The position numbers and the translations under genes were made by a program. Shown here piece after piece: positions 1-36,753 of a stretch of 40,000 nucleotides of DNA. The stretch lies in assembly GCA_964486935.1 (NCBI GenBank), contig CAZAPG010000007.1, positions 1 through 40,000 of the forward strand, given 5' to 3'. Under the pieces are notes generated by a model. That model was given only the letters and a program-made list of their open reading frames with translations. It was not told where the DNA came from and ran no database searches. Position 1 is the stretch's first letter. The number at the start of each line of letters is the position of its first letter. This DNA is from an uncultured Caldilineaceae bacterium. Its GTDB lineage: Bacteria > Chloroflexota > Anaerolineae > 4572-78 > J111.

Positions 1-1536
1 GACTGGATCAGCGAGAGCTTCCCCGGCCAGTTCCGCAACTGGTTCTACAGCATGCTGGTAATGGGCGGCATTATTGACAAAAGTCCGTCGTTTACCACCA
101 ACTTTGGCTACGCCACCCTGTGGGCCGAAGATGGCCGCCCCATGCACAAAAGCTGGGGCAACAGCATCGAGTTTAACGAAGCCGCCGACAAAATGGGCGT
201 CGATGTGATGCGCTGGATGTACTGCAACCACAAGCCGGAACAAAACCTGCTGTTTGGCTACCACCGCGCCGATGAAGTGCGCCGACAGTTTCTGATTCCG
301 CTCTGGAACGTTTACAACTTTTTTGTGACTTACGCCAAACTCGATGAGTGGGAACCACCAAAGGACGAAGGTCAAAATAGTCATTCGTCATTCGTCACTC
401 GTCATTCGTCAATATTAGATAAATGGATTCTGGCCCGGCTCAACCAGGTGGTGGCCAAAGTGACCACCAACTTTGAAAATTACGACGCCTACACCGCCAC
501 GCTGGCTATTCAGGATTTGCTGGAGGATTTGACTAACTGGTACGTGCGCCGCTCTCGCCGCCGCTTTTGGAAATCTGAGCATGATACCGATAAGGAGGCG
601 GCCTATGCCACCCTGTACCACGTGCTGACCACGCTCATCAAGGTGCTGGCCCCGGTAACGCCCTTTGCCACCGAGGTCATGTACCAGAATCTGGTGCGCG
701 GAGTCGACCCGCGCGCGCCGGAGTCTATCCACCACTGCCAGTGGCCCCAGGCCGACGAGTCGGCCATTGACCAGGCATTATTGGAACAAATGGATTTGGC
801 TCGACGCATCGCCAGTTTGGGGCTGGGCGCGCGCGGCAGCGTTAACATCAAGGTGCGTCAGCCGTTGGGCAAAGCGCTGGTGCATGTGGGTCAGTCTGAC
901 AGCCTGCCCCACGATGGCCTGTCAAAAGAGCTAACCGAGATTGTGGTGGATGAGCTAAATGTAAAGGCGCTGGAATTTGTCAGCGAAGCCAGCGACCTGG
1001 TCAGTTACAAAATACTGCCCAATCTCAAGCTGGTTGGCCCCAAACTGGGCAAACTGGTTCCGGCGGTACGCAGCGCGCTGGAGCAGGCCAACGCCGATGA
1101 AGTTGTGGCCAGGGTGAATAGTGGCGAAAATGTGGTGTTGCAGGTTGACGGCCGGGCGATTGAACTGGCCCCCGATGAAGTGCTGGTGCAAACCGAACCG
1201 GCCGAGGGGCTGGCCGTAGCCGCCGATAAAGTCATCACCGTGGGCGTGGATGTGGTTATTACCGACGAGCTGGCCGCCGAGGGGTTGGCCCGCGAGCTGG
1301 TGCGCCGCATCCAGAATATGCGTAAGGATGCCCAATTTGATATTGCCGACAAAATCAATATCTACTACCAGGCCGAGGGCGCAATTCATCACGTGCTTGA
1401 GGATTGGGAAGATTACATCAAAAACGAAACGCTGGCCGTAGCCATCGAGCACCGGCTCATTCCCGAAGCCGCCTTTCAGCGCAAAGAGCAGGTGGACGGG
1501 CTGGATGTGATGCTGGGTGTGAAGCGGGCGGCGTAA
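1..1536 (+). CDS. ileS: Isoleucyl-tRNA synthetase, C-terminal ~510 aa (5' end lies outside the window)
   Basis: Frame is open from nt 1 (ORF track begins at first ATG, 52). KMSKS-loop variant GRPMHKSWGNSIEF, GVDVMRWMY, LDKWILARL anticodon-binding signature. A strong terminator follows. Confidence 0.9.
   Translation, partial: DWISESFPGQFRNWFYSMLVMGGIIDKSPSFTTNFGYATLWAEDGRPMHKSWGNSIEFNEAADKMGVDVMRWMYCNHKPEQNLLFGYHRADEVRRQFLIPLWNVYNFFVTYAKLDEWEPPKDEGQNSHSSFVTRHSSILDKWILARLNQVVAKVTTNFENYDAYTATLAIQDLLEDLTNWYVRRSRRRFWKSEHDTDKEAAYATLYHVLTTLIKVLAPVTPFATEVMYQNLVRGVDPRAPESIHHCQWPQADESAIDQALLEQMDLARRIASLGLGARGSVNIKVRQPLGKALVHVGQSDSLPHDGLSKELTEIVVDELNVKALEFVSEASDLVSYKILPNLKLVGPKLGKLVPAVRSALEQANADEVVARVNSGENVVLQVDGRAIELAPDEVLVQTEPAEGLAVAADKVITVGVDVVITDELAAEGLARELVRRIQNMRKDAQFDIADKINIYYQAEGAIHHVLEDWEDYIKNETLAVAIEHRLIPEAAFQRKEQVDGLDVMLGVKRAA
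380..411. repeat. Tandem heptanucleotide repeat GTCATTC x4.5 inside ileS
   Basis: Read directly: GTCATTC GTCATTC GTCACTC GTCATTC GTCA. Translated in frame as SHSSFVTRHSS. Confidence 0.85.
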
Positions 1537-9084: not shown

Positions 9085-9591
9085 CTAGACAGCGTTGTAA
9101 GAAATCTCAACATCAGGGGCGCGGCGCAGGGTTTGATAGACAACACAATAACGCTCTGTCAAACGGACCAGGGTTGCCACTTCTTCTTTGCTGGCGTTCG
9201 TTTGCAGGTCAAAGGCTAACCGAATATCTTTGAAGCCAACCGGCGCTTCTTTGGAGACGCCCAGCGTACCCCTAAAATCCAAATCACCTTCGGCTGTAAC
9301 TGTTCCGCCCTGTAGTTCTACCCCAATAGCGGTTGCCACCGCATTGAGCGTAACTCCGGCGCAGGCTACCAGCGCCTCAAGGAGCATGTCGCCAGAACAG
9401 GCGGCAAAACCATCGCCGCCGGTGGCCGGATGAAGTCCGGCTTTAACCAGCGCCCGACCAGTTTCCACATTACAGGTGATCCCTTCGTCAATTCGGCCCT
9501 GGGCTTTTAAGGTTATCACCGCTGCCTGGGGTTCTTCTTGATATTTTTGCTTTAGCGGCGCTTGCAGCGCTTTGAGTTGTTGCGCATTCAT
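9085..9591 (-). CDS. OsmC/Ohr-family peroxiredoxin-like protein
   Basis: Two-Cys OsmC pattern GFAACSGDMLLEALVACAGV. Start set at ATG 9591, which has GGAGG 8 nt upstream. Confidence 0.8.
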   Translation of the reverse strand: MNAQQLKALQAPLKQKYQEEPQAAVITLKAQGRIDEGITCNVETGRALVKAGLHPATGGDGFAACSGDMLLEALVACAGVTLNAVATAIGVELQGGTVTAEGDLDFRGTLGVSKEAPVGFKDIRLAFDLQTNASKEEVATLVRLTERYCVVYQTLRRAPDVEISYNAV

Positions 9592-9613
9592 CAATCTTGC
9601 CTCCATAAAAATT

Positions 9614-10306
9614 TTATATCAAACCTCTCAAAACCGCTCCAGCCTTGTCAGAGAGCAGCGCTGTTCGCAGCCCGACCAGCAGCAATGCAATACCGGCCAT
9701 TTGAATAAGGTGGTACGCGCCGTTGTAATTAAACTGCCAGATTAGGGTAAATAATATCGCTTTATTGGCTTGCGCCCCGGCGGCAACCATTGTCACCAGA
9801 ATACCGGCAACCATCCACCAGGCTCCATCCAGCCGGCCCTGCCAGGCCAGCCAGATATAGCTGCCCAGGGCAAAGAGCATGGCGACGCCTTCGTAAACAA
9901 TAAATACAGTAAAGGTATCGGGCCATAACAGCGTAATTCCAAAAAAGACAACCCCCGCAACCAGCATCAGCGGCAGAGCGCGCCGGGCGACAGCCTGGCC
10001 CCAAACATCGTAGATGGCCCCCACCATAAACAAAGCCACCAGCAGCCCCAACGAGAGATAAAGCGGATGCCAGATAAGGGCGCGGGTGGCGTCGGCCAGT
10101 TGAAAGCCGTGGGCAATGGTTCCTAAAATGGAAGCCAGAGCCAGCAGGCCAAACGCCCAGGCCCACAGTTGGGCTTTCCACGGCTGTTGCTGCCCAATCT
10201 GGAGGATATAAAACACCGCCGCCAGGGCCATTAGGGCTAAAACAGCATCGGTGGCGGCGGTAGTTTGTTCAACGGGTTTGTCGATGAACTGGATTTTGCC
10301 GTTCAT
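9614..10306 (-). CDS. Polytopic membrane protein (6-7 TM helices), function unknown
   Basis: Repeated hydrophobic helices. GGAGG lies 9 nt upstream of ATG 10306. Confidence 0.65.
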   Translation of the reverse strand: MNGKIQFIDKPVEQTTAATDAVLALMALAAVFYILQIGQQQPWKAQLWAWAFGLLALASILGTIAHGFQLADATRALIWHPLYLSLGLLVALFMVGAIYDVWGQAVARRALPLMLVAGVVFFGITLLWPDTFTVFIVYEGVAMLFALGSYIWLAWQGRLDGAWWMVAGILVTMVAAGAQANKAILFTLIWQFNYNGAYHLIQMAGIALLLVGLRTALLSDKAGAVLRGLI

Positions 10307-10384
10307 AGAAGTCAACCTCCAGCTGCCGGCTGTACCCGGCGTAGACAAAAACGGGGAATACTCCCGGCCTTGCGGCCTGCGGCG

Positions 10385-11161
10385 CTATTTATTAAGGCGG
10401 TCAACAAAACGGTCAATCAGGCTGATGACCAGTTGCTCGGCAGCGCGGTCGGTGTCCATTTCGGGGTTCCACATGCTCACCGAAACGGCTACAATTTGCC
10501 GGGTGTTGGTCAAATGGGCCAGCGAGGCTTCGACGGTTTCTAAAGAGGGGCCGCCCTGGGCCGGGTAACTTACCGCGGGCAGGTCGGCCAGTTGCAGCAC
10601 GTCGCAATCAAAGTGAACGTAGATGGATTTGTCAGGCAATTTATGCGCGGTTAAATTGGCGACGTTGGGCAGATGGGTAAGACCGGAACCGGCCACGGCT
10701 TCGGCTTCGCCGGGGTCCAGGTCGCGGGCGTCGGTCAAAATAATATCGGCTTCGGGGTGATTTTCAGCGCCGGCGCCTTCAACAATAGTTTGCTCACCCC
10801 GGCCGCATAACATGGCCAGGGGCATACCGCCGATGAATCCGCTGGGGGTGGTGTCGGGCGTGTTGAAATCGCCGTGGGCGTCGTACCAAACCAGGGTAAA
10901 ATTAGGCGACTCGCGCTGCAAGCCGGCCAGCACGCCGATGCTGGCGGTGCAATCTCCGGCTATAACCACCGGCAGATTGCCTTCGGCCCGCACGGCGGCT
11001 ACTTCGTCGGCCAGGGCGCGGTTCAGGGCGCCCATTCGCCGGGTGGGGCTGCCCTGGGGCAACAGAGGAGTTACCAGCCGCCAGGTATGTCGAGCTACGG
11101 CGGCGTGAAGCGGGCTAAAATCGCCCATCCAATGAGGAACTAAAATATAAATTGGTCTCAT
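10385..11161 (-). CDS. Arginase/agmatinase/formiminoglutamase-family ureohydrolase
   Basis: Metal-site motifs DAHGDFNTP, GGMPLAML, HFDCDVL. Start at ATG 11161 (MRPIYIL). Confidence 0.8.
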   Translation of the reverse strand: MRPIYILVPHWMGDFSPLHAAVARHTWRLVTPLLPQGSPTRRMGALNRALADEVAAVRAEGNLPVVIAGDCTASIGVLAGLQRESPNFTLVWYDAHGDFNTPDTTPSGFIGGMPLAMLCGRGEQTIVEGAGAENHPEADIILTDARDLDPGEAEAVAGSGLTHLPNVANLTAHKLPDKSIYVHFDCDVLQLADLPAVSYPAQGGPSLETVEASLAHLTNTRQIVAVSVSMWNPEMDTDRAAEQLVISLIDRFVDRLNK

Positions 11162-11326
11162 GGTAATTTTACCTGGAGTCGGACAGTTCCAACAAGATGA
11201 CACCCATACCCAAAGGACACGGGCAGACACAGTAAATAAAAACCTGGGGAGTCAAAGTATACTTTGACACTCCGCCACCGTTATTTTCAGAGGAATCGTC
11301 ATGAGCCTGCGGCGCGCTGCCAAGAA

Positions 11327-12109
11327 TTAATCTTCGTAATCAATGCCGGGCGGCAAAAACCATTGGTGTTGGGTATAAATGCTAAAACCAAATCGGTTAA
11401 ACAGGTGGTAGGCGTGGGCGGTAGAAAAGAGCGCAGTAATATCCGCGCCAAATTCGCTGGCATCAACCAGCATGCTGTGCAGCAGGGTGGTGGCGACGCC
11501 CCGCTGCCGGAACTGGTCGATGGTGCACAGGTTCCAAACGCTGGCCACGCCATCGGCGCAAATGATGGTTCCCGCGCCTACGGGTTGCTCATTTAAAAAA
11601 GCCAGGTAATGTTTGATGCGCGGCTCTTCAAAATGCCGTGCCGGGTAAAATTTAATCAAATCCTTGAGTGGAAAATCAAACACGGCATGCAAGGTAGTGC
11701 AAAAAGCAGTGAGCGAAGGCACGGTTGTAACCCGTTGAACGGTAACATCTGGATTTAGCTCTACCTTATCGTGCGCGCCCTGCAACATCATGGCCGGCTG
11801 CGGCGGCAGCGATTGGTAGCGCAGTTGGCTTAGATAATCCGGCCCGTCGGGCAACTGGTCGTGGATAATTTCTACCACATAATGAATATTTCTGGATGAA
11901 AAAAAGGCAGAAGTATCGGCCAGGGTATCTTCTGTTAACCCTTTAGGGTCAAGCGGCATAAACGTATTGAAGGTGGGCAGGTGAACGCCGCTGTAGCCCC
12001 GCACCCAATGAGGCATCACTTCAAATAATCCGCCCGAAATTGTGCGATAAAAAACAGCCTTGGCTGTAATCAAATGTTGGTCTATGGCAAATCGGGTTGC
12101 AGAATCCAT
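11327..12109 (-). CDS. GNAT-family N-acetyltransferase
   Basis: Motif A: IDQFRQRGVATTLLHSML in the C-terminal half. Confidence 0.7.
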   Translation of the reverse strand: MDSATRFAIDQHLITAKAVFYRTISGGLFEVMPHWVRGYSGVHLPTFNTFMPLDPKGLTEDTLADTSAFFSSRNIHYVVEIIHDQLPDGPDYLSQLRYQSLPPQPAMMLQGAHDKVELNPDVTVQRVTTVPSLTAFCTTLHAVFDFPLKDLIKFYPARHFEEPRIKHYLAFLNEQPVGAGTIICADGVASVWNLCTIDQFRQRGVATTLLHSMLVDASEFGADITALFSTAHAYHLFNRFGFSIYTQHQWFLPPGIDYED

Positions 12110-12221
12110 ACCTTACCCATTGTTTTTCAGGATAGAGAAGGATAACATATCAGGAAACTTTTTGCCAAATTGTCAGCGCGGTGTGAGATTATTTACGCCT
12201 GGTCACAATAAAACAGAGCCG

Positions 12222-12812
12222 TTACCAGTCGCCATCTTTACGGGGCCAACGTTCCATAAAATCTTCTTCGGGGGGGACTCCCAGAGCATCGGCAATACGA
12301 TTGATGTAGTTAAAATAAGCGGCAATTTGGGTAATATCGTGAATTTCCTCGTCGCTGTAACCGCAGCGCCGCAATTGTTTGATATCTTCCTGACTCATCT
12401 GGCTGGGGGTCAGCGTTAATTTCTCGGCAAAGGCCAGCGCTGTCTGAGTGCGTTCCGGCAGCCCCGCCGAGCGCCAATTTTGGGCAAACCGGTCAACCAG
12501 GGCGTCGTCATCGGCCTCTTCACGGAGGTCGTGCAAATGGGCTTGCGTTCAATAATGGCAGTGGTTGGCCTGAGAAACCACCACTGCAATCATCTCTCGC
12601 TCTGGCCGGCCCAACATGGGGCTGCTTTGGTGCACTATGGAGCCGTACAATCGCATCGAGGCTTGCAGCGTAGCTGGCCGCAGGCTCATAATCCGCACAA
12701 TATTCCAGATTTTTCCGGCCCGTTTAATGGCGGCATTGTACTCTTTTTTTAGCAAGCCGGTGGCTTCTTCATTATAGAGCCAGCGAATCCAGGGTTTAAG
12801 GGTGGGGTTCAT
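12222..12812 (-). CDS. AhpD/carboxymuconolactone-decarboxylase-like 'peroxidase-related' protein with one in-frame TGA (candidate selenocysteine, alternatively a nonsense pseudogene)
   Basis: Track ORFs 12549..12812 and 12222..12536 share one frame and are separated only by TGA (complement of 12549..12551) plus 4 sense codons. The joined reading is EREMIAVVVSQANHCHY[TGA]TQAHLHDL. This fits the family pattern VS..N.C.YC..AH with TGA at the second Cys. Confidence 0.6.
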
Positions 12813-13767
12813 GGTGTCGCTTTTCGTACCAGTTTTTTATATCGGGCAAATGGTCATGGTAATGCTCACTTATATAAGTGATAAGTTCGGCCAGCGTGCC
12901 CCGGTCGCCCAGCCAGGGATAAGAGCCGCGTAGTTTCCAATCGCCGGGTTTAAGTTTGGTTACAAATTTATCAACAACCCGCTGGGTCTCGCGCAGATAG
13001 TGGTGATTTTCGGGCCAGCTTTTGTCAGCTCGATTGGCGGCCATAATTTCGTTCCACCCGGCAATGGTTTGGGCTACCGGCTCTACGGCGGGCTGAGAGG
13101 GGTCGTGAATGTGTCGCGCAACCATCAGGATTACCTGTTCCCAATCGGCAATGTGCCCCACCAGGTCGCTAATTGACCAGCCATTTACCGCACCTTTGGC
13201 CAGCACATCGCCTTCGGTGAACTTGTCCAAAACAATCATAAATTGGGCGCGGCGCTTTAACAGCTCGGCTTTAATAGCCGCCGGCTCTATCGCGGCTTCC
13301 AGTTTTTTACGCCATTGCTCAATCTCTATGGCATGGCGACGCTCGTGCTCCATCATAATATCAATCACGTAACTGCGAATGGTCAGCACCCGGCCCCGGC
13401 GTTCGTGCCGGCGGTCAATCTCCACATGGTCAATTGAGGTGATGATATCCAAAATCTGCTGGTGGGTCGATTGAATTGCAGCCAGCACTTCCGCCAGTGA
13501 TTTATCCTTCCAGGCCGCCACCGACTGCTGGTTGTGCTCTTCAACCTCAACGCCGGGTATTTCACCGGCTCTATCTTGCAAAATTAGCGGCAGGGTTGCC
13601 AGCACGCGCCGGTCCCAGCCAATCACATGGGCCAGCACATCTTTTATCGTCCAGTTCTCGTAGATGGGCGTTTGGGTCAACTCACGCTCAGATAGGCCGT
13701 CAATGGCGTCGAGCAGGGTTGAGCGTCCAAATTTCAATTCTGATACAATTTCAGCGATGCTTCCCAT
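12796..13767 (-). CDS. Tandem DinB/DinB_2-like four-helix-bundle protein
   Basis: Two ~160-aa halves. Each has a W(T/S)I.D(V/L)..H motif (WTIKDVLAHVIGWD, WSISDLVGHIADWE) and a C-terminal EH..H..I..W motif. The stop overlaps the downstream AhpD-like start by 17 nt. Confidence 0.7.
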   Translation of the reverse strand: MGSIAEIVSELKFGRSTLLDAIDGLSERELTQTPIYENWTIKDVLAHVIGWDRRVLATLPLILQDRAGEIPGVEVEEHNQQSVAAWKDKSLAEVLAAIQSTHQQILDIITSIDHVEIDRRHERRGRVLTIRSYVIDIMMEHERRHAIEIEQWRKKLEAAIEPAAIKAELLKRRAQFMIVLDKFTEGDVLAKGAVNGWSISDLVGHIADWEQVILMVARHIHDPSQPAVEPVAQTIAGWNEIMAANRADKSWPENHHYLRETQRVVDKFVTKLKPGDWKLRGSYPWLGDRGTLAELITYISEHYHDHLPDIKNWYEKRHHEPHP

Positions 13768-13776
13768 AATTATCCC

Positions 13777-15651
13777 CTAACTTTGCCCAACCCCCGCCGC
13801 AACCACTTCTATCACCTCGGCGGCCAGGTCGTACCGGCCAAAAGCCGGAATCAGATAAACACCCTGCACAAAGGGTTGCAGTTGCCTGATTAAATCGCGG
13901 GCCAGCCCGACGCCCATTTCCGCGCCGTTATCGCCAGCTGCGCGCATTTGCTGCCGGTACTCATCGGGAATATAGATGCCGGGCACTTCGTTGTGCAAAA
14001 ATTCGGCGTGGCGGCCATTGTACAGGGGCAGCACCCCGGCAATAATGGGCAGCGGCCACGGGCCGTATTCATCTTCGTATCGGGTTATAAACGCTCTGGC
14101 TCGTTCAACATTGTAAACAGGCTGGGTGAGGGCAAAATCGGCTCCGCTTTCAATTTTGCGATGCAATATTTTTAGCTCTCGCTCCGGGTCGGTAGGGGTC
14201 AGGTTGAGGGCGCAGCCAACCAAAAAATTGGTAGGTTGGGCCAGCGGCTCGCCGCCGTAATCAAGCCCTTTGTTGAACCCTTGCTTGAGCAGTTTTATCA
14301 GGCCGGTAGGCACCAGGTCATACTCATTGAGCGCTTCGGGATACTCGCCAATGGAAGTGGGATCGCCCATCACCGCAAAAATATTGCGCACGTTAAGCGC
14401 GTGCGCGGCCAGCAGGTCGCCCTGCACCCGCAAAATATTGCGCCCGCGGATGGGAAAGTGCAGCACCGTTTCCAGGTCAAGCCGGGTTTGAATCAGATGG
14501 CAGACCGCCCAGGGACTCATGCGCATGTGGGCGCGGGGGCTATCGGCCACGTTAATGGTGTTGGCTCCGGCAGATTTTAGGGTAGACACCCCGGCCAGCA
14601 CCCGCTCTACCGAAAAGCCTTTGGGCGGGCTGATTTCGGCGGTAACAACAAACTCGCCGGTTGACAGGCAACGGGCCAGACGGGTCGGCCCCAACACGTC
14701 AACCGTTCGGCCTGCCGACAGGTCATCACCCGGCAGGCGGGGCAAATCGGGCGCGTGGCGGGTTGGGTCATCCAGCGCGGCCCGCATGTAGGCTATATGC
14801 TGCGGGGTAGTGCCGCAGCAGCCGCCCACCAGCCGGGCGCCGGCCTCGATAAAAGCCAGGGCGTACTCGCCAAAGTATTCGGGGGTGGCCGGGTACATAA
14901 TCCGCTCGCCTACGCGCTCCGGCCAGCCGGCGTTAGGCTGGGCCGAAAGGCGGGTTTGGCCGGGCAAAAACTCGCCCAGGGTGCGGAGCGCGCGCAACAC
15001 GCCGGCGGGGCCAATAGAGCAGTTAATGCCAATTACGTCGATGGGCAGGCCGGCCAGTAGTTCGGCCACTTTTTGCGGCGTGTGGCCCAGGGGCGTGCGC
15101 ATATCTTCGGTAAAGGTAACGTGAGCCACAAGGGGGATATCTGGCGACACCTCGCGGGCGGCCTGTACGGCCTGGCGCAGCTCGTGCAGGTCAGAAAAGG
15201 TGTCGAAGATGAGCAGGTCTGCCCCGGCTTCAATTAAGGCGCTCACCTGCTCAACAAAGGCGCTGTGGGCCTCTTTGCTGCTTAACCGCCCCAGCGGGGC
15301 CAGCCGCAGGCCGAGTGGCCCAACGGTGCCGGCCACAAACAGATTTTTGAAGGCGGCATCCACCACCCGCCGGGCCAGCGAGACTCCGGCCCGGTTGATA
15401 TCGGCCACTTTGTGAGACAGGCCGTGCTCGGCCAGTTTGTAGCGATTGGCTCCAAAGGTGTTGGTTTCAATCACGTTAGCGCCAGCCTCAATATAGCCGC
15501 GATGAATGTCGGCAATCAGGGCCGGGTGGCTTAGATTGAGTTCATCGAAACAGCGTTCAAAGGGGATGCCTTTGGCGTAAATCATTGTTCCCATTGCGCC
15601 ATCGCACAGCAAGGGACGGTTATCAAGTTCGGTCAGAAACTTGTAAGTCAT
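13777..15651 (-). CDS. Bifunctional homocysteine S-methyltransferase / methylenetetrahydrofolate reductase (YitJ-type fusion)
   Basis: N-terminal Hcy-binding domain (LCDGAMGT, zinc-ligand motif GGCCGTTP). C-terminal MTHFR domain (FALTQPVY, IIAGVLPL). Confidence 0.9.
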   Translation of the reverse strand: MTYKFLTELDNRPLLCDGAMGTMIYAKGIPFERCFDELNLSHPALIADIHRGYIEAGANVIETNTFGANRYKLAEHGLSHKVADINRAGVSLARRVVDAAFKNLFVAGTVGPLGLRLAPLGRLSSKEAHSAFVEQVSALIEAGADLLIFDTFSDLHELRQAVQAAREVSPDIPLVAHVTFTEDMRTPLGHTPQKVAELLAGLPIDVIGINCSIGPAGVLRALRTLGEFLPGQTRLSAQPNAGWPERVGERIMYPATPEYFGEYALAFIEAGARLVGGCCGTTPQHIAYMRAALDDPTRHAPDLPRLPGDDLSAGRTVDVLGPTRLARCLSTGEFVVTAEISPPKGFSVERVLAGVSTLKSAGANTINVADSPRAHMRMSPWAVCHLIQTRLDLETVLHFPIRGRNILRVQGDLLAAHALNVRNIFAVMGDPTSIGEYPEALNEYDLVPTGLIKLLKQGFNKGLDYGGEPLAQPTNFLVGCALNLTPTDPERELKILHRKIESGADFALTQPVYNVERARAFITRYEDEYGPWPLPIIAGVLPLYNGRHAEFLHNEVPGIYIPDEYRQQMRAAGDNGAEMGVGLARDLIRQLQPFVQGVYLIPAFGRYDLAAEVIEVVAAGVGQS

Positions 15652-18849: not shown

Positions 18850-18852
18850 GAG

Positions 18853-18924
<72 letters not shown>

Positions 18925-18972: not shown

Positions 18973-20052
18973 TTATTGTATCCCATCTGCGTTTTGAGTC
19001 AAATTATCATTTTCTGCGGCATCGCTCTGTACGGCGTCGCTCTCCACCGGTGAGTAGCGGGCGTGGGCCTGTTGCAGTTCGGTGGTATCGAAGCGGGCGT
19101 AGATTTTGGTGGTGCTGATATCGCTGTGGCCCAGCAGCTCCTGAAGCTGGGCCGTTGGGATGCCGGCGATGGTGGTATCGCGGCCAAAGGCGTGCCGCCA
19201 GGCGTGGGGGCTGAAGATTTCTTCGTCGAGGCCGGCCCGGACGGCCAGGTTTTTGAATAGTTTGTAGAGGCCATCGTAGGTTAGCTTACCCTGGCGTCCT
19301 TGCCAGACGGGGTCGTTTGGGCCGGAGCAGGCCAGGGTTTGGCGGTAGGTTTTGAGCGCCCGGCGGGTGGGGGGGCGCAGGAAGATATCCCGGCGTTTGT
19401 TGCCCTTGCCAATGACGCCGGCGGCGCCGGTATCCAGGTCAAGATCGCCCCAAGTCAGGCTCAGGGCCTCGGCGGCGCGGCAGCCGGTATCTCTAAAGAA
19501 GAGCAGGAGGGCGCGCTCGCGGGGGGTTTGGGCGGCGGCCAGCATATTGTTGATGTTGTTTTTGAGGATGGCTTTGGGCAGGTTGTTTTTGGGCAGGTCC
19601 GGGGGCTGCACGCCGGCCAGGGGGTGCGCGGCCAGGCGGCCGGCATCTACCAGCCAGCGGGCAAAGCGGTTGAGGATGTGGTAATGGCCTTTGAGGGTAT
19701 AGGGGCTGAGGCCGCGCCGTTTGAGGCCGGCGTAGTAAGCCAGCCAGGTATCGGGCTGGGCGGGGTTGCGGCCAGTTTTTTGACACCAGGCGGCAAACTG
19801 GGCCAGGCGCTTGCGGTAGCCGGCCAGGGTATTGGGGCGGCGGTTTTCGTACACGTCCAGGTAATTGAGAAAGCCGGAGAGATATTCGGCCAGGGGGAGA
19901 GGTGCGGGCGGGGAGAGGCTGTTGTTGGACAGGGGGTGGCTAAGGCGGCGGCCATCGGGCAGGTTGATGGTTATGGTCCGACAATCGGAGGGCAGGCCGG
20001 CCAGGGTGATGATTAGCTGGTTGTTGCGGATATTTATGTTGAAATTAAGCAA
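18973..20052 (-). CDS. int: Tyrosine integrase
   Basis: Catalytic motifs FFRDTGCRAAEAL (Arg), HAWRHAFG (HxxR), LLGHSDISTTKIYAR (Tyr). Start reassigned to TTG 20052 (GGAGG 6 nt upstream), because ATG 20178 overlaps the start and RBS of the divergent gene. Confidence 0.85.
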   Translation of the reverse strand: MLNFNINIRNNQLIITLAGLPSDCRTITINLPDGRRLSHPLSNNSLSPPAPLPLAEYLSGFLNYLDVYENRRPNTLAGYRKRLAQFAAWCQKTGRNPAQPDTWLAYYAGLKRRGLSPYTLKGHYHILNRFARWLVDAGRLAAHPLAGVQPPDLPKNNLPKAILKNNINNMLAAAQTPRERALLLFFRDTGCRAAEALSLTWGDLDLDTGAAGVIGKGNKRRDIFLRPPTRRALKTYRQTLACSGPNDPVWQGRQGKLTYDGLYKLFKNLAVRAGLDEEIFSPHAWRHAFGRDTTIAGIPTAQLQELLGHSDISTTKIYARFDTTELQQAHARYSPVESDAVQSDAAENDNLTQNADGIQ

Positions 20053-20080
20053 TGGGGGCCTCCTTGTAACGGGTTTTTTG

Positions 20081-20092
20081 TGACATTTGTCA
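20081..20092. promoter_or_regulatory. Operator-like palindrome in the divergent int / early-gene intergenic region
   Basis: TGACA-tt-TGTCA within an AT-richer 124-nt spacer. Confidence 0.3.
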
Positions 20093-20176
20093 TTTGTGTG
20101 AAGCCGAAGTGAGGGTACAATATTAGCACGGGCGTTCAATTGGGGAAGAGTCGGGTGTATTTGAAGGAGAATTTTC

Positions 20177-20533
20177 ATGAACCAATCTCAATCTCAAAAA
20201 TTTGAGCCGGAGGACTCTTTTGAACAGTTGTTGGAACGTATCCGGCAACAACGGCATCCGGAGTATGGCTCGTTGGAATGGAACGGGCAGAGCCGGCAAG
20301 CGACGGTTAACATAAGGTTTGAAAACGAGGGGGATGATGAGGCGACGGTTCGCCGGCGGGCATTGACGTATCTGCGGGGGTTGACCCCGGAGGAGCGGGC
20401 CAATTTGAACATAGAGATTGTGTACCGCAAGAATGTGCCGGTGAGGGCTGTTATCCGGGGAAAAACCAGCAATCTGAACCCGGATAGATTAAGGGGTTTG
20501 GACCGGATGGCCAATGGGAAGCAGGGTCCATAG
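20177..20533 (+). CDS. Hypothetical prophage protein (118 aa)
   Basis: GAAGGAGA lies 7 nt upstream of ATG 20177. No family recognised. Confidence 0.6.
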   Translation: MNQSQSQKFEPEDSFEQLLERIRQQRHPEYGSLEWNGQSRQATVNIRFENEGDDEATVRRRALTYLRGLTPEERANLNIEIVYRKNVPVRAVIRGKTSNLNPDRLRGLDRMANGKQGP

Positions 20534-21376: not shown

Positions 21377-21907
21377 GTGTCCAGAAAGTTACCGACCTGG
21401 CTAACCCGGGCCGAGCGGAAAAGGTTGCTGGCCACCGAGTTGCCAACGCGAGACCGGGCAATTGTGGCTACGTTTTTGTATGCCGGCTTGCGAAGTAATG
21501 AATTGAGAATGTTAGACACGCCGGATGTGGATTTTGAGGAGATGACACTCCTGGTGCGTCATGGCAAACGCTCTAAGCAGAGATTGGTGCCATTACATCC
21601 GGACGCGGCGGCGGCGATGGAGAAGCACCTGGCCGGCCGGCGCGCCGGACCGGTGTTTATGACGCACCGCGGACGGATTAGCAACCGCCGGCTCAGGTCG
21701 CTCATCGAGCAAATTGGGCGAGAGGCCGGTTTGCAAAAAAAACTTCATCCGCACGTGTTACGGCACACATTTGCCACGTCGCTCCGCGAGGCCGGCCAGG
21801 AGTTGGATGTGATCCAGGCGTTGCTTGGCCATGAGCGCATCGAGACGACGGCGATTTATACGCACTGTAGCGTGGATCAGCTTAGGGCGGCGGTGGACCG
21901 GATTTAG
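21377..21907 (+). CDS. Short tyrosine recombinase (176 aa, essentially catalytic domain only)
   Basis: LYAGLRSNELRML (Arg), HPHVLRHTFAT (HxxR), LLGHERIETTAIYTH (Tyr). GTG start with AAGGAG 7 nt upstream. Confidence 0.8.
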   Translation: MSRKLPTWLTRAERKRLLATELPTRDRAIVATFLYAGLRSNELRMLDTPDVDFEEMTLLVRHGKRSKQRLVPLHPDAAAAMEKHLAGRRAGPVFMTHRGRISNRRLRSLIEQIGREAGLQKKLHPHVLRHTFATSLREAGQELDVIQALLGHERIETTAIYTHCSVDQLRAAVDRI

Positions 21908-21915
21908 GAGGCCAA

Positions 21916-22383
21916 ATGAAGGATACGCGAGACGTTTTTTTCTTATATGTTGCTCTGGCGCTAGTGATAGCGGCCATTGTGATCTGCGGCCTGGAATTTT
22001 TGATTCCCAAGCCATCGCCGGCGGCCACACCGACCGCGACGCACGCGCCGACGAACACCCCAACGGTAGCCGCGATTGTCTCGGCGCCAACTTTTACGCC
22101 AACACCTACGCCGATATCACCCCCCCCTACCTCTACGGCGACGCCTACCCCAACCGCAACCGTTTCGCCAACGCCTGCTGCCCCCGATAAGGCGTGCCTT
22201 ATCCAGCAAAACTCGATTTACGTCATTCAACCCGGAGACACGCTGTGGCGCATTTCTGAGTGCGCTTATGGCGATCCGCTTTTGTGGCCGGTGATTTTTT
22301 TGGCCAATCCACAATTGAGCGATCCCCACCTGATCCACGCCGGCAATTCGCTGATTATTCCACGGAGGCGCGTCGATGGCTAG
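21916..22383 (+). CDS. Membrane-anchored LysM-domain protein
   Basis: N-terminal TM segment FFLYVALALVIAAIVICGL, a Pro/Thr-rich linker, and LysM YVIQPGDTLWRISECAYGDPLLWPVIFLANP...AGNSLIIP. Confidence 0.8.
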   Translation: MKDTRDVFFLYVALALVIAAIVICGLEFLIPKPSPAATPTATHAPTNTPTVAAIVSAPTFTPTPTPISPPPTSTATPTPTATVSPTPAAPDKACLIQQNSIYVIQPGDTLWRISECAYGDPLLWPVIFLANPQLSDPHLIHAGNSLIIPRRRVDG

Positions 22384-26123: not shown

Positions 26124-26341
26124 AATTTTTGGGATGGACCCGGCCATATCCTGAGTTGAAGCCGGCAATTATAAATTTGAAATCCGGCACATCGTTCCGG
26201 GGGGTAGTCTGGCGAGTCAAGCGGCCATTCCTGGTCGTTCGGAACGCAGAGATTTTGAGCCAGGCCGACAAAAAATTGACGCCGGTCAGGGGCGAGGTAG
26301 TGGTGTTGCTAGAGCACGTGGATTTCGTCCAGGTGATATGA
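26120..26341 (+). CDS. Small protein between terL and portal (73 aa)
   Basis: Overlapping stop/start codons on both sides. Position is analogous to gpW-type head-tail joining genes, but no motif was recognised. Confidence 0.55.
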   Translation: MKFLGWTRPYPELKPAIINLKSGTSFRGVVWRVKRPFLVVRNAEILSQADKKLTPVRGEVVVLLEHVDFVQVI

Positions 26342-28275
26342 TGGCATTTGTGCAAACGCCCAACGGCCTGGAGATGGTGCAGCCCTGGTGGTCGCCCGGC
26401 CCGCTGCGGACCGGCATCCGGCTGTATGATAAATTCAATTACGATTACGCCACGCTGTACCGCACGCAGCCGAACATGCGGGTTTGCGTTGATTTTTTGG
26501 CCAGGAATATCGCCCAATTGGGCCTGCATGCGTTCCGGCGCGTGTCTGACATTGACCGCGAGCGGTTGACCGACCATCCCTTGCCACAGCTGTTGAGCAG
26601 GCCGTTGCCGGTCCAACTAAAAATGACGCGCTTCCGGCTGATCAACGCGCTGGTGAGCGATCTTGGCATCTATTTCAACGCCTACTGGCTCAAAATCAGG
26701 CGGGGTGGGCAGCTGGGGCTGTTACGGATACCGCCAATTTATGTGACGCCCTACGGCAACCTGGCGCCGATGGAGTACGAAGTGACCATTGGCGGCCGGA
26801 CGAGACGATTTGGGCCGGATGAAATCATTCATTTCTGGGGGTATAACCCGGAAAATCCTATTAGCGGCCTGGCCCCGGCGGAGACATTGCGCCGCATCCT
26901 GGCCGAGGAGCACGCGGCCGGCAACTACCGCGAGGGCTTTTGGCAAAATGCAGCCCGGATTGCCGGGGTGGTCGAGCGCCCGGCGGAAGCGCCGGAGTGG
27001 AGCGAAACGGCCAGGGAACGGTTCAAGGCCGAATTTGAAGAGCTGTATTCCGGGGAGGCGAATAGCGGCAAAACGGCTGTCCTGGAAGAAGGGATGAAAT
27101 GGCGGCCTAACACATTCACCCCCCAGGAAAGCGAATACCTGGGCGGGCGAAAATTGACCCGGGAGGAGTGCGCCAGGGCGTATCATATCCCGCCGCCGCT
27201 CGTTGGCATTTTGGACCACGCCACCTTTAGCAATATCCGGGAGCAGCACAAAAACCTGTACCAGGACACCCTGGGGCCGTGGCTGGTGATGATCGAACAG
27301 GACATCGAACTGCAACTCCTAACGGAGTTTGAGGATAGCGATGATGTTTATCTCGAATTCAACATCGCCGAAAAACTCAAGGGCGATTTTGAGGAGCAAG
27401 CCAAGGCGTTGCAATCGGCCGTGGGCCGGCCCTGGTTAACGGCCAACGAGGCCAGGGCGATGATGAACAAGCCCAGCCGGACCGGCGACGCCGACGAGCT
27501 GGTGACGCCGTTGAACGTGCTGGTTGGCGGGCAGGCGTCGCCGCGCGATAGCGCGCCGGAGCAGCGCGGCCGGGAAATGTTTGCCCGCAAACAGGCAACA
27601 AAAGGGTTTGATAGCCACGCGCCCAGGCTGCGGGAGCGACACCAACAGAAGTGGGCGGAGACGCTATCGCGGCACTACCGGCGGCAGGAGGCGGCCATTG
27701 TGAGCCGCGTGCCGGCCGGCGGCGTAGGAGGAAAATCGGACATTGGCGGGGTCTGGTGGGATGACGACCGCTGGAATAGCGAGTTATCGGCCGACCTGTT
27801 CCGCCTGAACCGGTTGACGGCTGTGGCCTGGGCCGAACGGCTGGCTGAACAAATGGAAATCGAGATATCCGAGGAGGCGATGTTGCCCTGGCTGCAAGAG
27901 CACTCGCGCATCCAGGCTGAAAACATCAACGAGCAAACCCGCGAGGCCGTGGCCGGGGCGCTGCAAGAGCCGGAGCCGCTGGAGGCGGTGAAGAACATTT
28001 TTAGCCAGGCGCTTACCGCGTGGGCTACGCGCCAGGCCGTGAGCGCCGTAACCACGGCGATTAGTTTTGGGGCCAACGAGGCGGCCCGGGCCGGCGGCCT
28101 GAGCCAAAAAACCTGGCGAGTCAACAGCAGCAACCCCCGCGACGGGCACGCCGCGCTAAACGGGGAGACGGTTGGCATCCGGGATTTATTTAGCAACAGA
28201 ATGCGCTGGCCCGGCGACCCGGCCGGCGGCGCGGAGAACGTGGCCAATTGTCAGTGTAGTGTGGAATTTTCGTAA
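26338..28275 (+). CDS. Portal protein (HK97 family) fused to a C-terminal Mu F / SPP1 gp7-like minor-head domain
   Basis: Portal core covers roughly aa 1-420 (YLGGRKLTREECARAYHIPPPLVGI). The C-terminal ~200 aa end in NPRDGHAALNGETV...WPGDP...NCQCS, typical of MuF-like domains. Confidence 0.9.
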   Translation: MMAFVQTPNGLEMVQPWWSPGPLRTGIRLYDKFNYDYATLYRTQPNMRVCVDFLARNIAQLGLHAFRRVSDIDRERLTDHPLPQLLSRPLPVQLKMTRFRLINALVSDLGIYFNAYWLKIRRGGQLGLLRIPPIYVTPYGNLAPMEYEVTIGGRTRRFGPDEIIHFWGYNPENPISGLAPAETLRRILAEEHAAGNYREGFWQNAARIAGVVERPAEAPEWSETARERFKAEFEELYSGEANSGKTAVLEEGMKWRPNTFTPQESEYLGGRKLTREECARAYHIPPPLVGILDHATFSNIREQHKNLYQDTLGPWLVMIEQDIELQLLTEFEDSDDVYLEFNIAEKLKGDFEEQAKALQSAVGRPWLTANEARAMMNKPSRTGDADELVTPLNVLVGGQASPRDSAPEQRGREMFARKQATKGFDSHAPRLRERHQQKWAETLSRHYRRQEAAIVSRVPAGGVGGKSDIGGVWWDDDRWNSELSADLFRLNRLTAVAWAERLAEQMEIEISEEAMLPWLQEHSRIQAENINEQTREAVAGALQEPEPLEAVKNIFSQALTAWATRQAVSAVTTAISFGANEAARAGGLSQKTWRVNSSNPRDGHAALNGETVGIRDLFSNRMRWPGDPAGGAENVANCQCSVEFS

Positions 28276-28285
28276 GGAGCGAGAC

Positions 28286-28894
28286 ATGAAACGAAAAACA
28301 TTTACCGCGCCATTGGAGTTAAAAGCGGAAGGAGACGGGGAGCGAGGCGAGTTCAAGGCGGTCTTTGCCACGCTTAACGTGGTAGACCACCACGGCGATG
28401 TGACCATGCCCGGCGCGTTTGAGAAGCAGGAAGTTGTTGTTGAGCCGTGGAACCACGACTGGACGCTGCCGGCCGGCAAGGGCGTCATCAAAGCCGATGA
28501 TTCGGAAGCCTGGATAGAGGGGCAATTTTTTTTGGACACCAACGCGGGCCGGGAGAATTACCAGACGGTGAAAAATCTGGGGGCGCTGGCGGAGTGGTCT
28601 TACACTTTTGATATCATCGAGGCCGACCGGGGCCAACACGCGGGCGAAGAGGTGCGATTTTTGAAAAAAATGGACGTGGTTGGCGTAGGGCCGGTGACGC
28701 GCGGCGCGGGTATTGATACCCGCACGGTGGCGATTAAATCGCAGCAGGATTTAAAAAATGCGGACGACAAGGGAGGCGAGGCTGAAAGCGCCGAAACCGG
28801 CGATGACGGTAAGCCCGGCGGGATCGGGCCGCAGGTTGTTTTAGCTCAAATTGAACTTATTGAATTGGAGGCGGAGGATGCCATTAGACATTAA
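28286..28894 (+). CDS. HK97-family prohead protease
   Basis: GEFKAVFATLNVVDHHGDVTMPGAF. AAGGAG lies upstream of ATG 28286. Located between portal and capsid. Confidence 0.85.
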   Translation: MKRKTFTAPLELKAEGDGERGEFKAVFATLNVVDHHGDVTMPGAFEKQEVVVEPWNHDWTLPAGKGVIKADDSEAWIEGQFFLDTNAGRENYQTVKNLGALAEWSYTFDIIEADRGQHAGEEVRFLKKMDVVGVGPVTRGAGIDTRTVAIKSQQDLKNADDKGGEAESAETGDDGKPGGIGPQVVLAQIELIELEAEDAIRH

Positions 28895-30182
28895 CAAAAC
28901 CAAAGAAGAAATGCAGGATGCGCTGACCAAGGCGCGAGATATAGTTGATTTGACCGAGCAAGAGCAGCGCGATTTTACCGACGATGAGCGGAAATCGGTG
29001 GGCGACCTGCTCAAAACCGCGCGCGAGAAAAAGAAGCTGCTGGAGCAGGCCAAGGCGGACGATGAAATCCGCCGGGCGGTGAATGAACTCGGCGAGGGGA
29101 TTGAACTGAATGAGGCTGGACAGCAGGGAGAGGGCAAGCAACAACGGCGCAAAACGCTGGGCGAGCGGTTTACCACGGCCGACGCCTGGGTAGCCTGGCT
29201 GAAGCAGAACACCTCCGGGGGCGTTATCCCCGACAGCCGCAAGGGGATCACCTCGCCGCCGCTTGAGGTTAAGGATTTTGGCCTGTTCGGGCGCAAAGAG
29301 CTATTGACCGGCGTATCCGATGTAAGCGCCGGGGCGCTGGTAGAGAGCGACCGGACCGGCATTTATGAGCCTCTGGGCCGCTACCCGCTGACCATCCGCG
29401 ACCTGATTAGCGTGCGCCAGACCACGAGCGACACGGTGGAGTTTGTGCGCCAGACCCAGCAGGTGACCCAGGCCGCGCCGACCCCGGAGGCCAATGTGAC
29501 CACGCCGAGCGGGGCCACCGGCGAAATTAGCGGCGAGAAGCCGGAAGCGACGATGCGCTTTGAGCGGGTGACCGAGCCGGTCAAAACCATTGCGGTCTGG
29601 ATACCGGCCACCAAGCGCGCCCTGAGCGACGCGGCCCAGCTGCGCGGCCTGATTGATATGGAGCTGCGCGACGACCTGGCCGAGGAGCTGGAGGACCAGA
29701 TTTTGAACGGCGACGGTGTTGGCGAGAACTTTACCGGCCTGGCTAGCGTGGCCAACACGCTGGCGCAAGCCTTTGTAACGGATATTCCGACCACCACCCG
29801 CAAGGCGTTGACCCACCTGCTGGTCACCGGCAAGCAGATACCCACCGCCTGGATGCTCAATCCGGTAGACTGGGAAGCGGTTGACCTGTTAAAAGATGAC
29901 CAGGGGCGCTACTACTGGGGCGGGCCAATGGCTATGGGAACGCGCACCCTGTGGTCGTCTCCCGTGGCCCAGGGGTTTTTCCAGACCCAGGGCGCGGGCT
30001 GGCTGGCTAACTGGCGAAAGGCGGTGCTGTGGGATCGCGAGCAAGCGACGGTCAGCGTGACGGACAGCCACAGCGACTTCTTCATCCGCAATATGGTGGC
30101 CATCCTGGCCGAGATGCGGGCCGCCTTCGGCGTGATCCGGCCTAGCGCGTTTGTTGAAGTGGACCTAGAAGCGGGCAGTTAG
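28878..30182 (+). CDS. HK97-fold major capsid protein with an N-terminal coiled-coil delta domain
   Basis: GGAGG lies upstream of ATG 28878. Charged helical N-terminus, then VKTIAVWIPATKRALSDAAQLRGLID and ILNGDG. Confidence 0.9.
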   Translation: MPLDINKTKEEMQDALTKARDIVDLTEQEQRDFTDDERKSVGDLLKTAREKKKLLEQAKADDEIRRAVNELGEGIELNEAGQQGEGKQQRRKTLGERFTTADAWVAWLKQNTSGGVIPDSRKGITSPPLEVKDFGLFGRKELLTGVSDVSAGALVESDRTGIYEPLGRYPLTIRDLISVRQTTSDTVEFVRQTQQVTQAAPTPEANVTTPSGATGEISGEKPEATMRFERVTEPVKTIAVWIPATKRALSDAAQLRGLIDMELRDDLAEELEDQILNGDGVGENFTGLASVANTLAQAFVTDIPTTTRKALTHLLVTGKQIPTAWMLNPVDWEAVDLLKDDQGRYYWGGPMAMGTRTLWSSPVAQGFFQTQGAGWLANWRKAVLWDREQATVSVTDSHSDFFIRNMVAILAEMRAAFGVIRPSAFVEVDLEAGS

Positions 30183-36421: not shown

Positions 36422-36753
36422 ACCTCGAGGCGCTATTGCAGCAGGCGCTCCGCAGTGGGCTGGCCGTGGCGGAATTTTGGGAGATGACGCCGCGGGAAAC
36501 ATACATGGCCATCGAGGCGGCCGGCTGGCGCGAAAATCAACGCTTACGGCAGCGGATGTCGATGGCCTGGCTGACGGCGGCGCTGGGCCGACAGAAACGT
36601 ATGCCATCGTTGAAATCGCTGCTGGCGCGATCCAAACCGGCGCGGAAGTTGAGCGGCCAGGAGCTGCGCCGGCGGCGGCAAGAGTTTGGCGAGATGGCCA
36701 CGGCGGAGAATGTTAAACGAATTAATGAGCAGGCGGCAAAGGCTAGTAAATGA
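36397..36753 (+). CDS. gpT-like extension of the tail chaperone, expressed as a G-T fusion by -1 frameshift
   Basis: The -1 frame relative to 36029..36421 has no stop from 36370 to 36753. It has no independent ATG or RBS (the track start is TTG 36436). It ends with an ATGA overlap into the tape measure gene. Confidence 0.65.
   Translation, partial: RKQRLGELDLEALLQQALRSGLAVAEFWEMTPRETYMAIEAAGWRENQRLRQRMSMAWLTAALGRQKRMPSLKSLLARSKPARKLSGQELRRRRQEFGEMATAENVKRINEQAAKASK

Follow-up and report, generated by a model that had tools for sequence, protein, structure and literature searches.

The minus-strand gene at 12812..12222 very probably encodes a single 196-residue AhpD-like thiol/selenol oxidoreductase of the TIGR01926 family, with selenocysteine (Sec) inserted at the UGA at 12551..12549. 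Coordinates refer to the window, that is, the whole 40,000-nucleotide stretch of DNA that was analysed, which probably derives from a Caldilineae-like member of Chloroflexota. A Sec codon that creates a CxxU motif was the main reading of the original prediction. It is now supported by conservation of the TGA, by selection on both halves of the gene, and by a covarying hairpin past the TGA.

The gene is one continuous reading frame interrupted by one codon. The frame comprises 196 codons followed by a TAA stop, and its start agrees with the starts of homologues (MNPTLKPWIRWL...). The TGA is the sole internal stop, in the context ...EREMIAVVVSQANHCHY-TGA-TQAHLHDLREEADDD..., and translation of 12812..12222 reveals no further stops or frameshifts. 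The original prediction had described two open reading frame (ORF) fragments that share a frame and are parted by a single TGA. Translation confirms this: a fragment of 87 amino acids (12549..12812) and one of 104 amino acids that begins at a TTG (12222..12536) lie on either side of the codon. The coordinates of the gene, its elements and its surroundings are collected in the table below. We also scanned the window for other selenoprotein genes in the form of TGA-split ORFs, and only 12222..12812 is credible; the remaining split ORFs are spurious, being out-of-frame or antisense.

Features of the selenoprotein gene, its predicted recoding elements and its surroundings (window coordinates)
Feature	Position	Strand	Basis
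AhpD-like / 'peroxidase-related enzyme' selenoprotein gene (predicted), complete	12222..12812	-	sequence, translation, family models
Start codon ATG	12810..12812	-	translation
Stop codon TAA	12222..12224	-	translation
In-frame UGA, predicted Sec codon, residue 88; motif C85-H-Y-U88	12549..12551	-	TGA at homologous codon in relatives
Cys85 codon TGC, first residue of CxxU redox motif	12558..12560	-	C85 invariant in homologue alignment
SECIS-like hairpin	12512..12531	-	covariation, covariance model
Hairpin 5' arm, CGACCUC	12531..12525	-	
Hairpin loop, CGUGAA	12524..12519	-	
Hairpin 3' arm, GAGGCCG	12518..12512	-	
Upstream gene, two DinB_2 (DinB/MST-like four-helix-bundle) domains	12796..13767	-	DinB_2 9.6e-27, two stretches
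Homocysteine S-methyltransferase/MTHFR fusion, upstream of DinB_2 gene	13777..15651	-	
GNAT acetyltransferase, downstream	11327..12109	-	
Arginase-family protein, downstream	10385..11230	-	
DUF6962, downstream	9614..10348	-	
OsmC-like peroxiredoxin, downstream	9085..9606	-	
tRNA-Cys(GCA)	18852..18924	-	
Prophage integrase	18973..20178	-	
Prophage second integrase-family ORF	21377..21907		
Prophage LysM protein	21916..22383		
Prophage portal protein	26338..28275		
Prophage major capsid protein	28851..30182		
Prophage tape-measure-like protein	36750..39017		

The encoded protein is a full-length AhpD-like enzyme. With the TGA read as Cys, it matches the NCBIfam model TIGR01926 ('peroxidase-related enzyme') at 160 bits against a cutoff of 81.8, with residues 8-183 aligned to positions 2-177 of the 178-position model. 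Under the same reading, it also matches the Pfam CMD domain PF02627 (5.8e-13, 49.1 bits; cutoff 23). The closest solved relatives are AhpD-like chains (PDB 6K40 AhpD, E = 1.8e-30; also 3C1L, 2OYO, 2PFX and 2PRR), and these matches point to an all-helical CMD/AhpD fold for the window protein. In the alignment to 6K40, the query segment NHCHY[C]TQAH stands opposite NRCVYCAVSH. The two domain matches and the homologue column agree with the original prediction in placing the TGA at the second Cys of the CxxC motif of an AhpD/CMD-like protein.

The residues around the TGA are those of the AhpD active site. In an alignment of 27 homologues, E73, C85, Y87 and H92 are invariant. The relay pattern E-x11-C-x-[H/Y]-C/U-x3-H is present as E73, C85, Y87, U88 (the TGA) and H92. 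A proton relay has been described for Mycobacterium tuberculosis AhpD (E118, C130, H132, C133 and H137) and for PA0269 (E36, C48, Y50, C51 and H55) (PMC3141380), and the window residues equal both relays in number and spacing. What differs is the residue at the TGA: M. tuberculosis AhpD, PA0269 (2O4D), 6K40, 3C1L, 2OYO, 2PFX and 2PRR all have Cys, whereas the window protein has a predicted Sec at the same place. Two further NCBIfam entries, the alkylhydroperoxidase-related (seleno)protein NF041238 ('AhpD_rel_CFYUT') and the YciW-related (seleno)protein NF053654, also have an AhpD-like domain homologous to that of the window protein, with the motif C-x-Y-U. The window protein scores below both cutoffs (67.8 bits versus 175 for NF041238, and 35.7 bits versus 310 for NF053654). 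It is not a member of NF041238, since the score is far under the cutoff and only positions 152-338 of the 357-position model are matched.

The position of the TGA within this active site bears on whether the 87- and 104-residue fragments could both be real products that together make up a split AhpD-like fold. An open frame does start at a TTG 12 nt past the TGA, and the two halves are entered separately in many databases. However, the second start is not conserved, as the fragments begin with M, V or L at varying positions. A split would also sever the catalytic helix C-x-Y-[U]-x-x-x-H midway through the proton relay (PMC3141380), and Cys-containing homologues are single chains. We consider a split protein scarcely credible, and treat the gene as encoding one chain.

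The TGA is conserved among homologues from many phyla. We searched a collection of 5.8 billion proteins, and among the 120 matches listed, the residue at the TGA column is Cys in 68, 'W' in 33 and 'G' in one. Also among these 120 matches are six to seven N-terminal fragments that stop exactly at ...C-x-Y, and seven C-terminal fragments that start just past the TGA. In a genomic search, using one genome per species (GTDB), 79 of the best 80 loci carry TGA at the corresponding codon. These loci represent about ten phyla, including Chloroflexota, Actinomycetota (Acidimicrobiia and others), Gemmatimonadota, Latescibacterota, Planctomycetota, Acidobacteriota, Poribacteria, Marinimicrobia and Myxococcota. 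TGA was also read at this codon in the DNA of the related loci L001, L002, L088 and L090. The mixture of Cys and TGA that the original prediction expected at this column is therefore present among the listed proteins and the best loci.

The 'W' and 'G' residues at the Sec column (proteins P0002-P0065) are an artefact, because the underlying DNA is TGA translated under code 4 or 25. For example, the contig encoding one 'W' form (protein P0002, contig L002) does not give the listed protein under code 11; its DNA carries TGA at 686..688. A TGA-as-Trp code has evidently been chosen by gene callers on short contigs. Such mistranslated entries are numerous in public protein collections, as the proportion of 'W' forms above illustrates, and constitute a systematic artefact. 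Standard gene callers thus return either the 87- and 104-residue fragments, labelled 'hypothetical', or, on short contigs, a silent Trp or Gly.

Close relatives of the window gene show that the residue itself is variable. The nearest named relatives are metagenome-assembled genomes (MAGs) from Caldilineae/Caldilineaceae. One of these, a Caldilineaceae MAG that is the closest genome match (L003, 68% identity), is the sole exception among the best 80 loci, with AGC (Ser) at 10247..10249. Among the close relatives considered (L003 and proteins P0001, P0035, P0004 and P0021), the redox residue is Ser in L003 and P0001, Cys in P0021 and Arg in P0004. These states indicate that the redox residue turns over quickly in the Caldilineae clade.

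At the level of populations, the TGA is again retained. Ten metagenomic variants from the species-level cluster of the window protein, each at least 90% identical to it and drawn from independent JGI, ENA and Logan samples, terminate without exception at ...C[HP]Y. An identical TGA and hairpin region is found on four Logan contigs. Since the TGA has been kept across phyla and in ten diverged variants, a recent nonsense mutation cannot explain the pattern. This contradicts the alternative raised in the original prediction, namely a pseudogene in which a TGY-to-TGA mutation of a Cys-containing AhpD-like gene would leave an 87-residue fragment as the most that could be made. The fragmentation by gene callers is what such a pseudogene would produce, but the frame carries none of the additional stops or frameshifts of a decaying gene.

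Selection on the gene is equally strong on both sides of the TGA. We compared the window gene codon by codon with L088, L090 and L001, the closest relatives that carry the TGA. Nonsynonymous divergence (pN) is 0.14-0.18 in the 5' part and 0.12-0.22 in the 3' part, while synonymous divergence (pS) is 0.62-0.79, which is near saturation; omega is ~0.06-0.2 in either half. The low pN and the saturated synonymous sites past the TGA indicate that the 3' part is translated and constrained. Purifying selection 3' of the TGA, which the original prediction anticipated for a recoded gene, is thus as strong as in the 5' part, and we regard a pseudogene as extremely unlikely. We also considered a global reassignment of TGA (code 4 or 25). 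This is ruled out, as TGA is the ordinary stop for 6 of the 23 Pfam-supported genes of the window. Recoding must therefore be local.

A conserved SECIS-like hairpin lies downstream of the UGA. We aligned 80 homologue sequences anchored at the UGA, with the U of the UGA counted as position 1. The family hairpin occupies positions 21-40 and consists of the stem (C)GACCUC/GAGGUC(G), whose 3' arm also occurs as GAGGYCG, and a 6-nt loop, C-G-K-G-N-N. In the window, the stem begins 18 nt and the apical loop 24 nt past the UGA, and the hairpin is coded within the peptide H-D-L-R-E-E-A. Across the 80 sequences, 90.6% of cells are in standard pairs, and compensatory changes occur at six of the seven pairs. 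None of 500 shuffles was as good, and 25-45% remained paired when the 3' arm was shifted by 1-3 nt. RNAalifold finds no consensus structure on all 80 anchored sequences; the hairpin emerges once the analysis leaves out six members whose hairpin is of another type, the 74 main-class sequences giving ((.((((......)))).)). A covariance model built from 73 members, with the window left out, matches 12508..12551(-) at 49.9 bits (E ~6e-19), and this is its sole significant match in the 40 kb. Rfam returned no bacterial SECIS or other relevant family, whether the entire window was scanned at gathering thresholds or the vicinity of the site at E <= 10. A conserved structure past the UGA, as the recoding of this codon would lead one to expect, is thus present.

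The compensatory changes run across the protein code. At pair 24-37, C-G is replaced by U-A in 13 sequences, through GAC to GAU, which is synonymous for Asp, and GUC to AUC, which exchanges Val for Ile. Other compensated stems are AGCCUC/GAGGCU in L048 (Asp to Ser together with Val to Ala), GACUUC/GAAGUC in L076, and GACCUG/CAGGUU in L080. The third loop base falls at the wobble position of an invariant Arg codon, and among the 80 sequences, from G+C-rich genomes, it is G in 43 and U in 37, with C or A in none. This bias would fit an RNA-level constraint on a G/U loop determinant. The hairpin-coding peptide DLRxE[VIAG] is found in 20 of 33 TGA forms versus 2 of 68 Cys forms, and the Ser form (L003) has lost the hairpin complementarity. 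Part of the covariation signal could nevertheless stem from protein constraint and phylogeny, as these are related sequences from a coding region.

The original prediction had placed a hairpin 3' of the UGA and noted that its loop lacked a G/U signature. A conserved hairpin is indeed found in the same stretch, but not in the proposed register (CCAUUUGCACG / loop ACCUC / CGUGAAGAGG; pairs 13-22 with 28-37). That register is 48.4% paired in the 80 homologues, the same as in the shuffled and slid controls, and was rejected. The remark on the loop does not hold either, since in the correct register the loop reads C-G-(G/U)-G-N-N.

The window copy of the hairpin is among the weakest of the family, ranking 71st of 80 with a folding energy of -6.4 kcal/mol (family median, -9.5). 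It contains one A·C mismatch (12529/12514), which results from an Ala codon (GCC) in place of the usual Val codon (GUC). Folded alone, the window sequence is no better than shuffles (z = -1.0), and its centroid favours the small CACG/CGUG stem of the original prediction. A weak hairpin with a mismatch could be read as a sign of a pseudogene, but the same one-mismatch architecture recurs in six other loci (L008, L052, L061, L069, L071 and L082).

Six homologues, mostly from Acidobacteriota, lack the main hairpin (L029, L051, L064, L068, L075 and L079). They share instead an 8-bp hairpin with a GGA triloop, CACGGGGA-GGA-UCUCCGUG, which begins 9 nt past the UGA (about 10-31 nt). This alternative hairpin lies nearer the UGA than the main one and is apparently a second kind of SECIS in the same family.

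The SECIS of E. coli fdhF is a SelB-binding hairpin immediately 3' of the UGA. The window hairpin is similar in that it lies inside the coding region, close behind the UGA, and conserves G/U in its loop. It differs in its stem (GACCUC/GAGGUC) and 6-nt loop (CGKGNN), which are peculiar to the AhpD-like family. It would be bound by SelB.

We propose that the hairpin at 12531..12512, 18-37 nt past the UGA, serves as a bacterial SECIS when the ribosome reads this codon. SelB·GTP·Sec-tRNA(Sec) would thereby be brought to the A site, and translation would then run on through the C-terminal 108 residues. In the finished enzyme, Sec88 would be the attacking nucleophile on an oxidised partner, which may be a peroxiredoxin, a peroxide or a disulfide. 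The adduct would be resolved as a selenenylsulfide between Sec88 and its predicted partner Cys85, and a cellular reductant would then re-reduce the pair. A selenol/thiol redox couple is the most likely chemistry. In M. tuberculosis AhpD, the second Cys of the motif attacks AhpC, which would fit Sec at residue 88. The partner of the M. tuberculosis enzyme, which is lipoamide-dependent, is AhpC, whereas no ahpC adjoins the window gene.

The 40-kb window contains no selA, selB, selD or tRNA-Sec, as judged from a tRNA scan and a search for SelA, SelB and SelD domains among 30 window proteins. No tRNA-Sec was found in the flanks of 60 related loci either. Lack of Sec machinery in the window would also suit a pseudogene; we infer the Sec-decoding capacity of the source organism from the gene itself. 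In one related locus (L072, 9165..9255, minus strand), ARAGORN reports a 91-nt 'tRNA-Glu(ctc)' of odd geometry, with its anticodon at position 29.

Another possibility is that Sec decoding has recently been lost, or that a near-cognate tRNA (Trp or Cys) reads the UGA, so that the product would have a CxxW or CxxC motif or be made in low yield. The swaps to Ser (L003 and P0001) or Cys (P0021) in close Caldilineae relatives lend this some plausibility, as they imply that the trait is labile in the clade. However, the hairpin and its G/U loop are kept in the window and in its nearest TGA-bearing relatives, while they are lost from the Ser form. Furthermore, TGA stops other genes of the window, and the population variants retain TGA with no drift to sense codons. 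Loss of decoding or near-cognate reading is thus very unlikely, and decoding of the UGA as Sec remains the preferred reading.

The window gene is an ordinary additional member of a known selenoprotein family. The first description of AhpD-like selenoproteins with a CxxU motif (COG2128), in 2005, drew on the Sargasso Sea metagenome and gave 27 sequences as well as a predicted SECIS (PMC1088965). 'AhpD-like 1' ranked fourth in abundance in the Global Ocean Sampling (GOS) selenoproteome, with 299 sequences (PMC2398784). A 2026 review of prokaryotic selenoproteomes has an entry 'AhpD-like protein, TIGR01926, CxxU' (PMC13188914), and the family has its own page in BSepDB (PMC13326102). The statement in the original prediction that AhpD/CMD-like proteins are among the reported bacterial selenoproteins is accordingly correct (PMC1088965, PMC2398784 and PMC13188914). 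The window gene shares with this family the TIGR01926 domain, a CxxU motif with Sec in second place, a downstream SECIS hairpin with G in the apical loop, and widespread Cys homologues. Nothing essential differs, although the window copy has the A·C mismatch in its hairpin and is probably translationally coupled to a DinB_2 gene that is fused to it in relatives.

Our result is therefore a corrected annotation and not a discovery, and current understanding is unchanged because the literature has covered both the family and the CxxU motif since 2005. Three aspects are mildly new: a clade-specific DinB fusion, the turnover of Sec, Cys and Ser in close relatives, and two SECIS classes in one family. 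The selenoprotein status of the gene implies that the source, an uncultured Caldilineae-like member of Chloroflexota, uses selenium and has the Sec-decoding trait. It would also add one redox enzyme to the oxidative-stress repertoire of this organism. The family SECIS model (a stem coded by D-L...E-V and a CGKGNN loop, with the second type in Acidobacteriota) is well supported and could serve to annotate more members.

The association with DinB-like proteins was not found in the literature on the AhpD-like selenoprotein family (PMC1088965, PMC2398784 and PMC13188914). In the window, the last 17 nt of the DinB_2 gene overlap the start of the selenoprotein gene, and the DinB_2 gene is likely a co-transcribed, translationally coupled partner. 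A single ORF covers the DinB-like and AhpD-like parts in L001 (91..1146), L003 (9029..10573) and L090 (20..1288), and in protein P0048. Across the 80 loci, no neighbours are conserved; the DinB link is restricted to Caldilineae-like loci and is absent in other phyla. Tentatively, the Caldilineae AhpD-like selenoprotein may form a dedicated two-part system together with a DinB/MST-like protein, an idea that we consider possible but rather doubtful. In such a system, a metal-dependent thiol S-transferase-like partner would be regenerated by the selenol/thiol pair or would supply it with substrates, and the lineages with Ser and no hairpin (L003 and P0001) would have abandoned selenium. If true, this would provide the first concrete physiological partner for a long-uncharacterised selenoprotein family.

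The selenoprotein gene sits within a run of same-strand genes (9085..15651, minus strand), which includes the methyltransferase/MTHFR fusion upstream of the DinB_2 gene and, downstream, the GNAT acetyltransferase, the arginase-family protein, the DUF6962 protein and the OsmC-like peroxiredoxin. Elsewhere in the window, a prophage adjoins the tRNA-Cys(GCA) gene, the region extending from 18852 to ~40000. Alongside the integrase, LysM, portal, major capsid and tape-measure-like genes listed in the table, it carries several ORFs without a family match.
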